Shown here piece by piece: positions 5,869 to 7,064 of a stretch of 12,059 nucleotides of DNA (position 1 is its first letter; every line of letters begins with the position of its first letter). The translations under genes were made by a program, and so were the position numbers. The notes under the pieces were generated by a model. That model did no database searches and was not told where the DNA came from. It saw nothing but the letters and a program-made list of their open reading frames with translations. The stretch comes from a virus (Duplodnaviria; Heunggongvirae; Uroviricota; Caudoviricetes): IMG/VR virus record IMGVR_UViG_2541047758_000005, positions 1 through 12,059 of that record. One strand, written 5' to 3'.

Positions 5869-5894
5869 GAGTTGCCCATCGATATGGTCAGCTC
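5869..5894. terminator. Hairpin between convergent bor and Rz (gagttgcccat cgat atggtcagctc), probable bidirectional terminator
   Basis: 11-bp arms with one G-U wobble and one mismatch, 4-nt loop; overlaps the Rz stop codon (5894-5896). Confidence 0.45.
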
Positions 5895-6355
5895 TATCTG
5901 CACTGCTCATTAATATACTTCTGGGTTCCTTCCAGTTGTTTTTGCATAGTGATCAGCCTCTCTCTGAGGGTGAAATAATCCCGTTCAGCGGTGTCTGCCA
6001 GTCGGGGGGAGGCTGCATTATCCACGCCGGAGGCCGTGGTGGCTTCACGCACTGACTGACAGACTGCTTTGATGTGCAACCGACGACGACCAGCGGCAAC
6101 ATCATCACGCAGAGCATCATTTTCAGCTTTCGCATCAGCTAACTCCTTCGTGTATTTTGCATCGAGCGCAGCAACATCACGCTGACGCATCTGCATGTCA
6201 GTAATTGCCGCGTTCGCTAGCTTCAGTTCTCTGGCATTTTTGTCGCGCTGGGCTTTGTAGGCGATTGCGTTATCACGGTAATGATTGACCGCCCATGACA
6301 GGCTGACGATGATGCAGATAATCAGAGCGGATATAATCGCGGTTACTCTGCTCAC
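5894..6355 (-). CDS. Rz: Spanin inner-membrane subunit Rz (i-spanin)
   Basis: Track ORF 5894..6367; body [60 protein letters not shown]... matches lambda Rz (153 aa); the homologous start here is GTG at 6353-6355, overlapping the R stop (GTGA). Confidence 0.92.
5953..6135 (-). CDS. Rz1: Spanin outer-membrane lipoprotein subunit Rz1 (o-spanin), embedded in +1 frame of Rz
   Basis: 60-aa [27 protein letters not shown]... with lipobox VVVGC and Pro-rich mature part; fully nested inside Rz as in lambda. Confidence 0.9.
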
Positions 6356-6849
6356 TGTTGCCCCCACAAACAGACTTCACGCTCAATCTCACGACGAGTC
6401 ATCAGGCCTTTCCATTGCTTACCGCCAGCGTATGTCCAGCGACGCAGCTGATCACATGCGCCTTTGATATCGCCCTGGTTTATTTTGCGAAGAAGCGTCG
6501 ATGTTCTAAAATTGCCAGCACCCACATTGTAAACGAATGAGTAAAGAGCGCCGCGCGTTGTTTCCGGTATATCGACTTTGATATACGGGTTAATTTGTCT
6601 GGCGACAGTGGCAAGGTCTTTATTCAAGAGTGCTTTGCATTCTGCTTTGGTATACGTTTTACCGAGCATGATGTCTTTTCCGGTGTGTCCGTGACATACA
6701 GTCCATACACCAACAATATCTTTGTATGGTATGTAGCTGACACCTTCCAGACCATCGTTACCACTTGGGCCAGTGATTAACACTGATGCTATAGCAATTG
6801 CTCCGCCACCAATAGCAGCAGCAACGGCTTTTCGTAATGATGGAGGCAT
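6352..6849 (-). CDS. R: SAR endolysin R (phage-21-type T4-lysozyme-family muramidase)
   Basis: 165-aa ORF; N-terminal Gly/Ala-rich signal-anchor-release segment [20 protein letters not shown] followed by lysozyme motif [25 protein letters not shown]; matches phage 21 R / DLP12 RrrD by recall, not lambda R transglycosylase. Confidence 0.92.
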
Positions 6850-7064
6850 TATTCACCTCTCGCAGCCTTGCGCTTATCTTCTTTAATCTTGAAATAAAGG
6901 TTTGTCAGGTACGTCAGCAGGCCAAATACCAGGCTACCCAGCACACCTATTGCTGCCCACTGTGAGGGAGTGACTTTATCGAGCAGCTGTAAAAACCAGT
7001 AACCGGCACTACCTGCTGAGGTGCCATAGGCGGCTCCAGTTGTTAACTTATCCATGAATTTCAT
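6849..7064 (-). CDS. S: Pinholin S (phage-21 S-type), 71 aa, dual-start motif
   Basis: Track ORF 6849..7109; preferred start is ATG at 7062-7064 with GAGGTG RBS, giving [28 protein letters not shown]...[36 protein letters not shown]; two TMDs; second ATG at codon 4 (M-K-F-M) as in S21 71/68; stop overlaps R start (TAATG). Confidence 0.9.

Follow-up and report, generated by a model that had tools for sequence, protein, structure and literature searches.

Does the DNA between positions 5894 and 7064 hold a complete lysis cassette, and is its combination of genes peculiar to the prophage in which it lies? The window, by which we mean the whole analysed stretch of 12,059 nucleotides from IMG/VR virus record IMGVR_UViG_2541047758_000005, coincides exactly with the contig that two N runs delimit in scaffold KE699876.1. 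An earlier note, made from the letters of the window alone, had described the segment as a mosaic in which a pinholin and a signal-anchor-release (SAR) endolysin of the phage 21 type are joined to lambda-like Rz and Rz1, all four genes being retained intact in a prophage remnant. We assign 5894-7064, with a probability of roughly 93%, to the late-gene lysis module of an E. coli lambdoid prophage remnant of the DLP12 type (the qsr'/phage 21/434/PA-2 group), and nothing in the evidence contradicts this assignment. It is directly supported by the integrity of the genes, their family membership, their near-identity to characterised proteins and the homology of the promoter and terminator elements upstream. 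The cassette is an already known one, of the DLP12/phage 21 type, very common in E. coli and ordinary in its makeup.

Gene layout of the cassette

Four genes make up the cassette; they are intact, overlap one another and all lie on the minus strand. The S gene (essD-type, 7064..6849) encodes a protein of 71 aa beginning with MKFMDK, with the second Met codon at 7055..7053, and is followed by R (rrrD, 6849..6352), which encodes a 165-aa SAR endolysin with a muramidase domain of the GH24/T4 type. Next comes Rz (rzpD, 6355..5894), the gene for an inner-membrane spanin of 153 aa with a GTG start, and wholly embedded within it, in the +1 frame with an offset of 220 nt, lies Rz1 (rzoD, 6135..5953), the gene for an outer-membrane lipoprotein spanin of 60 aa. 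The stop codon of S and the ATG of R have one base in common (TAATG), and the stop codon of R and the GTG of Rz overlap as GTGA at 6355, as had been claimed. No premature stops or frameshifts were found in S, R, Rz or Rz1. The strand of the genes had been left unstated in the earlier note.

A mechanically generated list of open reading frames lengthens Rz to a GTG at 6367, giving a product of 157 aa. The GTG at 6355 is nevertheless the better predicted start, since it forms the GTGA overlap with the stop codon of R, and since lambda has its ATG, and K-12 and 434 their GTG, at this very position.

All four products match their Pfam families. S is recognised by PF04971 (Phage_holin_2_1, "Bacteriophage P21 holin S"; cut-off 26) with 118.3 bits (E = 1.4e-34, the match covering 1-63 of the 64 profile positions), R by PF00959 (Phage_lysozyme; cut-off 22.3) with 155.2 bits (1.3e-45), Rz by PF03245 (Phage_lysis/Rz) with 182.2 bits (5.3e-54, above the cut-off), and Rz1 by PF06085 with 71.7 bits (4e-20, likewise above the cut-off). 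With scores so far above the cut-offs, a chance pattern can be dismissed. No NCBIfam model scored above its cut-off for any of the four proteins, and Rfam gave no match in the cassette or its leader.

The pinholin S

The S protein shows two transmembrane domains (TMDs), called here by simple hydropathy rather than by a dedicated TM predictor. TMD1 is the uncharged run 7-25, which is weakly hydrophobic and SAR-like (mean Kyte-Doolittle value of 0.46, 68% G/A/S/T), while TMD2 is the uncharged run 36-54, which is hydrophobic (mean of 1.72); the C-terminal tail is charged. The Met1-Lys2-x-Met4 motif is present, with MKFM at the positions of the MKSM of phage 21, 434B and K-12, and in phage 21 and 434B both products of the dual start are annotated at matching positions. 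The gene is thus predicted to give a 71-aa antipinholin from Met1 (7064) and a 68-aa class II pinholin from Met4 (7055). The family match, the hydropathy and the alignment of the motif all agree with the earlier reading of S as a phage 21-type pinholin with two TMDs and a dual start.

At the protein level S is 97.2% identical to EssD of K-12 and 84.5% identical to S of phage 21. It carries F3 and A11 where EssD of K-12 has S3 and V11. The common form of the protein has this F3 ("MKFM"), and Lys2, a residue important for antiholin behaviour (PMC9636201), is kept. The change of V11 to A in TMD1 goes back to a single base at window position 7033; the exact A11 protein occurs on only two contigs in the protein collection, from the draft E. 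coli assemblies GCA_000457635.1 and GCA_000457655.1, as compared with at least 1000 contigs for the V11 form. This rare, conservative substitution is the only peculiarity of the cassette.

The SAR endolysin R

R is identical over 165 of 165 residues to chain A of PDB entry 4ZPU, 'Lysozyme RrrD', the endolysin of K-12 DLP12 (E = 5e-112), and also matches the phage 21 R structures 3HDE (E = 3.7e-111) and 3HDF. Its overall identity is accordingly 100% to K-12 RrrD, and 98.8% to phage 21 R. The N-terminus, which is the same as that of RrrD and of phage 21 R (R21), contains the SAR domain as a Gly/Ala-rich, weakly hydrophobic stretch at residues 8-27 (65% G/A/S/T) with R6 and K7 just before it. For R21, Sec-dependent export, membrane tethering and release upon depolarisation are established (PMC9636201). 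Residues 35-50 hold the lysozyme motif E35-x8-D44-x5-T50, which agrees with the E-x8-D-x5-T pattern given for "true lysozyme" endolysins in PMC9239132. BLASTP of R against lambda R gave no detectable similarity (E = 3.1). The proposed identity of R, a SAR endolysin with a catalytic region of the T4 lysozyme type and not a transglycosylase like that of lambda, is borne out by these observations.

The Rz/Rz1 spanin

Rz contains an N-terminal TMD at residues 4-23 and two cysteines, Cys99 and Cys152, and is 99.3% identical to K-12 RzpD, 98.0% to lambda Rz and 95.4% to phage 21 Rz. In Rz1 there are a VVGC lipobox with Cys20, a further cysteine at position 29, and a proline-rich mature part (9 Pro in 41 residues); its identity is 100% to K-12 RzoD, 98.3% to the phage 21 protein and 96.7% to that of lambda. 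Both the lambda-like character of Rz and the nested position of the Rz1 lipoprotein gene had been correctly noted. The alignment, TM and lipobox checks proposed with the earlier note found the E/D/T triad in R, both TMDs in S and the lipobox in Rz1, and its statement that all four genes are intact holds both for the full-length reading frames and for the Pfam matches.

Comparison with reference cassettes

The cassette was compared with those of K-12 DLP12, lambda, phage 21 and 434B. The DLP12 prophage (qsr') of K-12 has the same order, Q-nmpC-S-R-Rz/Rz1-bor-ybcV-ybcW-ylcI-nohD, and is 97.8% identical in DNA to window positions 2801-8692. It differs in that its nmpC is split by IS5, whereas the porin gene here is intact, in that its TerL is a fragment, whereas that of the window is intact, and further in its leader hairpins, through an indel of 16 bp and a single change in a stem, and in the sequence upstream of Q. 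The S, R, Rz and Rz1 proteins of 434B equal those of K-12.

Phage 21 shares the architecture, the overlaps, the gene lengths (71, 165, 153 and 60 aa), the dual start with Lys2 and the S-R-Rz/Rz1-bor layout. Its nucleotide identity to the window is 76% in S, 95.6% in R and 96.8% in Rz, and its Rz starts with ATG, not GTG as here. It also has a different type of Q with its own pR' and Q-binding element (QBE), and two tRNA genes upstream of S. The living temperate phage PhiR29_1 has a cassette that is 99.9% identical (1 nt apart in 1171, the differing base being the one at 7033 that gives V11A in S) and lies within the same order of Q, porin (reverse), S, R, Rz, bor, ybcV, ybcW, Nu1 and TerL. Phages 434, PA-2 and PhiR29_1 are complete, whereas the structural gene region is truncated here.

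Lambda is related over only a part of the region. Continuous DNA homology of 98.3% begins at 3818, on the cos-proximal side, and ends exactly at the R/Rz junction (6354); bor is 96.9% identical to its lambda counterpart. The S and R genes of lambda are unrelated to those of the window, with nucleotide identities of 37.5% and 35.8% in a multiple alignment and protein identities of 21.6% and 19.2% in forced global alignments, but the logic of the dual start and that of Q, pR' and terminator are the same. The S protein of lambda is a class I holin with three TMDs that makes large holes, and lambda R is a soluble transglycosylase. The S/R junction (relative to phage 21) and the R/Rz junction (relative to lambda) are accordingly classical lambdoid mosaic boundaries. 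The term "mosaic" in the earlier note therefore stands relative to lambda only, where homology ends at R/Rz, and fails as a description of this locus in particular: the S-R-Rz/Rz1 combination is the native architecture of phage 21, 434, PA-2 and DLP12, and since all of them have it, it is standard for the group and not peculiar to the remnant, which contains no new junction.

Of 5426 complete E. coli genomes, 3303 contain at least 80% of the length of the cassette; genomes with any match have a median of 2 matching places and up to 14. The genes are named essD, rrrD and rzpD by PGAP in E. coli genomes, where they stand in the same order, as they also do in 434B.

The region between Q and S

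The Q antiterminator gene (8940..9323, minus strand) encodes 127 aa with a match to PF06530 (8.5e-54); it is labelled quuD by PGAP in near-identical genomes, and its product is 79% identical to the Q of an Stx phage. Q is presumed to be the activator of late and lysis transcription. Between Q and the pR'/S region lies an intact porin gene of the lc/nmpC type on the plus strand (7653..8750; PF00267, 1.8e-156), which is a moron, that is, an accessory gene inside the prophage, outside the lysis machinery.

A pR'-like late promoter, TTTACG-16 nt-TATGCT, was located on the minus strand at 7256..7283, about 190 nt upstream of S, by alignment to pR' of Stx phage 06-3462; this assignment is by homology alone, and the Stx-phage feature is itself annotated by similarity. 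The surrounding segment, 7284-7202, is homologous to one that in many Stx phages overlaps the 3' end of Q and extends beyond it, and in one annotated Stx phage the homologous segment bears both a "pR'" and a "possible rho-independent terminator". A generic scan for sigma-70 promoters and terminators over 5800-9500 gave no convincing minus-strand promoter upstream of S and, near Q, only the terminator of the porin gene. We also considered a pR' directly downstream of Q (8940-8750, inspected by eye) and rejected it, as only the hairpins of the convergent porin gene are found there and the homology to the Stx-phage pR' maps to 7283-7256. Another promoter-like sequence, TTGAAC-17-TAAATA at about 7323-7295, differs from K-12 at several bases and has no support from homology.

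Two terminator-like elements separate this promoter from S. The first is a hairpin with a T tract on the minus strand at 7202..7225, aligned to the rho-independent terminator annotated in the Stx phage. Its stem contains a G-to-T mismatch, and its fold is calculated at -6.5 kcal/mol; the K-12 counterpart folds at -12.0 and that of the Stx phage at -14.9. Since the living phage PhiR29_1 has this T as well, the weakened hairpin is not a defect of the remnant. The second, at 7112..7175 on the same strand and just upstream of the ribosome-binding site of S, consists of two tandem hairpins and a U-rich tract, with a fold of -21.5 kcal/mol (z = -3.4) that none of 200 shuffled sequences equalled; 16 bp within it, at 7127..7112 in the hairpin pair and U-rich segment, are absent from K-12. 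Over the 281 bp that precede S, the window and the lc record of phage PA-2 (J02580) are 100% identical. No QBE was identified upstream of S, and no tRNA genes of the kind present in phage 21 and Stx phages were found between Q and S.

Taken together, the Q gene, the promoter resembling pR' and the terminator-like hairpins fit the dependence of S-R-Rz/Rz1 expression on Q that the earlier note had supposed. According to the passage in PMC7918800 that cites Rueggeberg et al., the K-12 cassette is under the control of a Q-type antiterminator, RpoE and Hha.

Proposed mechanism of lysis

The steps of lysis are taken from the characterised systems of phage 21 and lambda (PMC9636201), and from these we infer the expression, timing and lethality of the present cassette allele. 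RNA polymerase modified by Q would start from pR' (~7283-7256), pass the terminator-like hairpins and proceed into S-R-Rz/Rz1. The two starts of S would yield S68, the pinholin, and S71, expected to act as antipinholin because its extra Lys2 slows the exit of TMD1 from the membrane. Meanwhile R would be exported by Sec and build up in an inactive form, tethered to the inner membrane via its SAR domain. At the programmed time the pinholin would make small heptameric channels and the proton-motive force would collapse; in phage 21 the channels of S21 68 are likewise small and heptameric, so that the membrane is depolarised and a soluble endolysin cannot pass (PMC9636201). R would then be released, refold and cut the peptidoglycan by means of E35, D44 and T50, and in the last step the complex of Rz in the inner membrane and Rz1, the outer-membrane lipoprotein, would disrupt the outer membrane. 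DLP12 SRRz/Rz1 in multicopy is reported to lead to a lytic phenotype (PMC7918800).

Status of the prophage and alternative readings

The prophage is a remnant, as had been proposed. A reading of the cassette as part of a complete, inducible prophage could point to Nu1, TerL (641 aa), gpW, Q and the lysis genes, which are all intact, and to further tail-fibre genes beyond ompT in the other draft assembly, but it is extremely improbable in view of what follows and precedes them. The portal gene ends after 119 aa and is succeeded directly by the tail-fibre assembly gene; no head or tail-shaft genes were found between the two, and the tail genes are down to a fragment of the tail-fibre assembly gene and one of a tail protein. 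On the other side, no replication or immunity genes were found upstream of Q within the contig, where the prophage sequence gives way at 9710-9712 to that of the envY-ompT intergenic region. The normal route of the early transcript to Q is missing with this replacement, and Q may therefore be poorly expressed. These losses lend some weight to the idea that the cassette is a silent relic, its genes intact only since the remnant is young and never expressed now that the early region driving Q is gone, and the two terminator-like elements between pR' and S point the same way. We consider this unlikely, however: the equivalent module of K-12 is reported to be transcribed and phenotypically active (PMC7918800), and the weakened first hairpin would tend towards leakiness, not silence.

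Activity in K-12 also bears on a different possibility, that the module has been domesticated and is kept for a role in the host through low-level, regulated expression, contributing to peptidoglycan turnover, biofilm formation or the production of outer-membrane vesicles (OMVs). [quoted passage not shown] That so many of the complete E. coli genomes retain the cassette, often within decayed prophages, would agree with such a role, but it is equally explained by the frequency of lambdoid prophages and by recombination among them, and the 99.9% identity to the cassette of a living phage means that no host-specific divergence is visible. Domestication is less likely than not, and it would be a role added to that of the DLP12-type lysis module, with which it is compatible. 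Quite doubtful, finally, is the notion that the small departures of this lineage from the commonest allele, namely V11A, the weakened first hairpin and the 16-bp U-rich segment absent from K-12, might jointly alter the timing or leakiness of lysis; if they did, the remnant would be a host-tuned module for autolysis or OMV production and not a strictly Q-locked phage weapon.

Significance

As a textbook pinholin/SAR-endolysin/spanin system, for which crystal structures and genetics are known and whose K-12 homologue has already been examined for its effects on lysis, biofilm and vesicles, the cassette has little significance beyond its correct annotation. What is gained is that the four genes now have exact coordinates, a strand and start codons, that "mosaic" is corrected to the native layout of phage 21, 434 and DLP12, and that the likely late promoter and the terminators are placed between the inserted porin gene and S.

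Strain-specific decay around an intact lysis cassette

Decay of this locus is strain-specific, and the lysis cassette (pinholin S, SAR endolysin R and spanin Rz/Rz1; 5894-7064, minus strand) is spared, being intact in every strain inspected. Among the packaging genes (within 624-3628, minus strand), TerL (gpA, 641 aa) is intact in the window whereas it is fragmented in E. coli K-12, which carries the cryptic prophage DLP12, and in several other strains. Nu1 (181 aa) and gpW are also kept, while the portal gene of the same region stops after 119 aa. At the tail-fibre-assembly/methyltransferase end of the remnant, Rfam gives a full-length match to IS009 (RF02111; 39-237, minus strand), which scores 218 bits where the gathering threshold is 117.

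Convergent with Rz lies bor (5569-5862, plus strand; PF06291), a serum-resistance lipoprotein gene with the lipobox ITGC. The encoded protein is identical to BorD of K-12 (100%) and closer to Bor of lambda (96.9%) than to that of phage 21 (only 91.8%), so the DNA downstream of Rz is lambda-like, not 21-like.

The S allele and the junction with ompT

In S, the window differs by one base (position 7033, codon 11) from the commonest allele, giving a V11A substitution in the first transmembrane domain of the pinholin, at which position phage 21 S has isoleucine instead. The exact A11 protein was found on only two contigs, whereas at least 1000 contigs carry the V11 form. Both draft assemblies with the A11 allele (GCA_000457635.1 and GCA_000457655.1) also have the breakpoint at 9710-9712 (context 9339-12059), where the prophage remnant upstream of the antiterminator gene Q abuts the envY-ompT intergenic region; none of 5426 complete genomes has this junction contiguously. 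On its prophage side are a fragment of DUF968 together with a truncated hypothetical gene, and beyond the intergenic region are ompT (10135-11088, plus strand) and then the start of an alpha/beta hydrolase gene. In other E. coli genomes, by contrast, ompT is found on the opposite side of the prophage, past its tail end. The sister scaffold has a methyltransferase segment in two copies of 99.6% identity, an arrangement that tentatively suggests a tandem pair of lambdoid remnants and not a fresh duplication.

The region between Q and S

An intact porin gene of the lc/nmpC type (7653-8750, plus strand; 365 aa; PF00267) is placed, in reverse orientation, between Q (quuD; 8940-9323, minus strand) and the pR'/S region, and its insertion leaves Q about 1.6 kb from its pR'-like promoter (7256-7283, minus strand). 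In Stx phages, by contrast, pR' overlaps the end of Q. The homologue of the porin gene in K-12 and in phage 434B is interrupted by IS5, unlike the copy in the window. The intergenic DNA adjoining the gene is 100% identical to the lc record of phage PA-2, in which CRP sites are annotated.

Two terminator-like elements of the leader (7202-7225 and 7112-7175, minus strand) vary reciprocally between the lineage of the window and K-12. In the former, which includes the living temperate phage PhiR29_1, the first hairpin is mismatched and a 16-bp U-rich segment (7127..7112) is retained after the second, whereas in K-12 the first hairpin is perfect but these 16 bp are missing.

According to its annotation, the 434B record (OL657227) contains a DLP12 crossover that extends from ylcG as far as about codon 14 of S and imports Q and nmpC::IS5 of K-12; the rest of its lysis proteins are native to 434 and identical to those of K-12 DLP12. 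This phage shows that the Q/late-promoter region of DLP12 is able to drive a viable phage.
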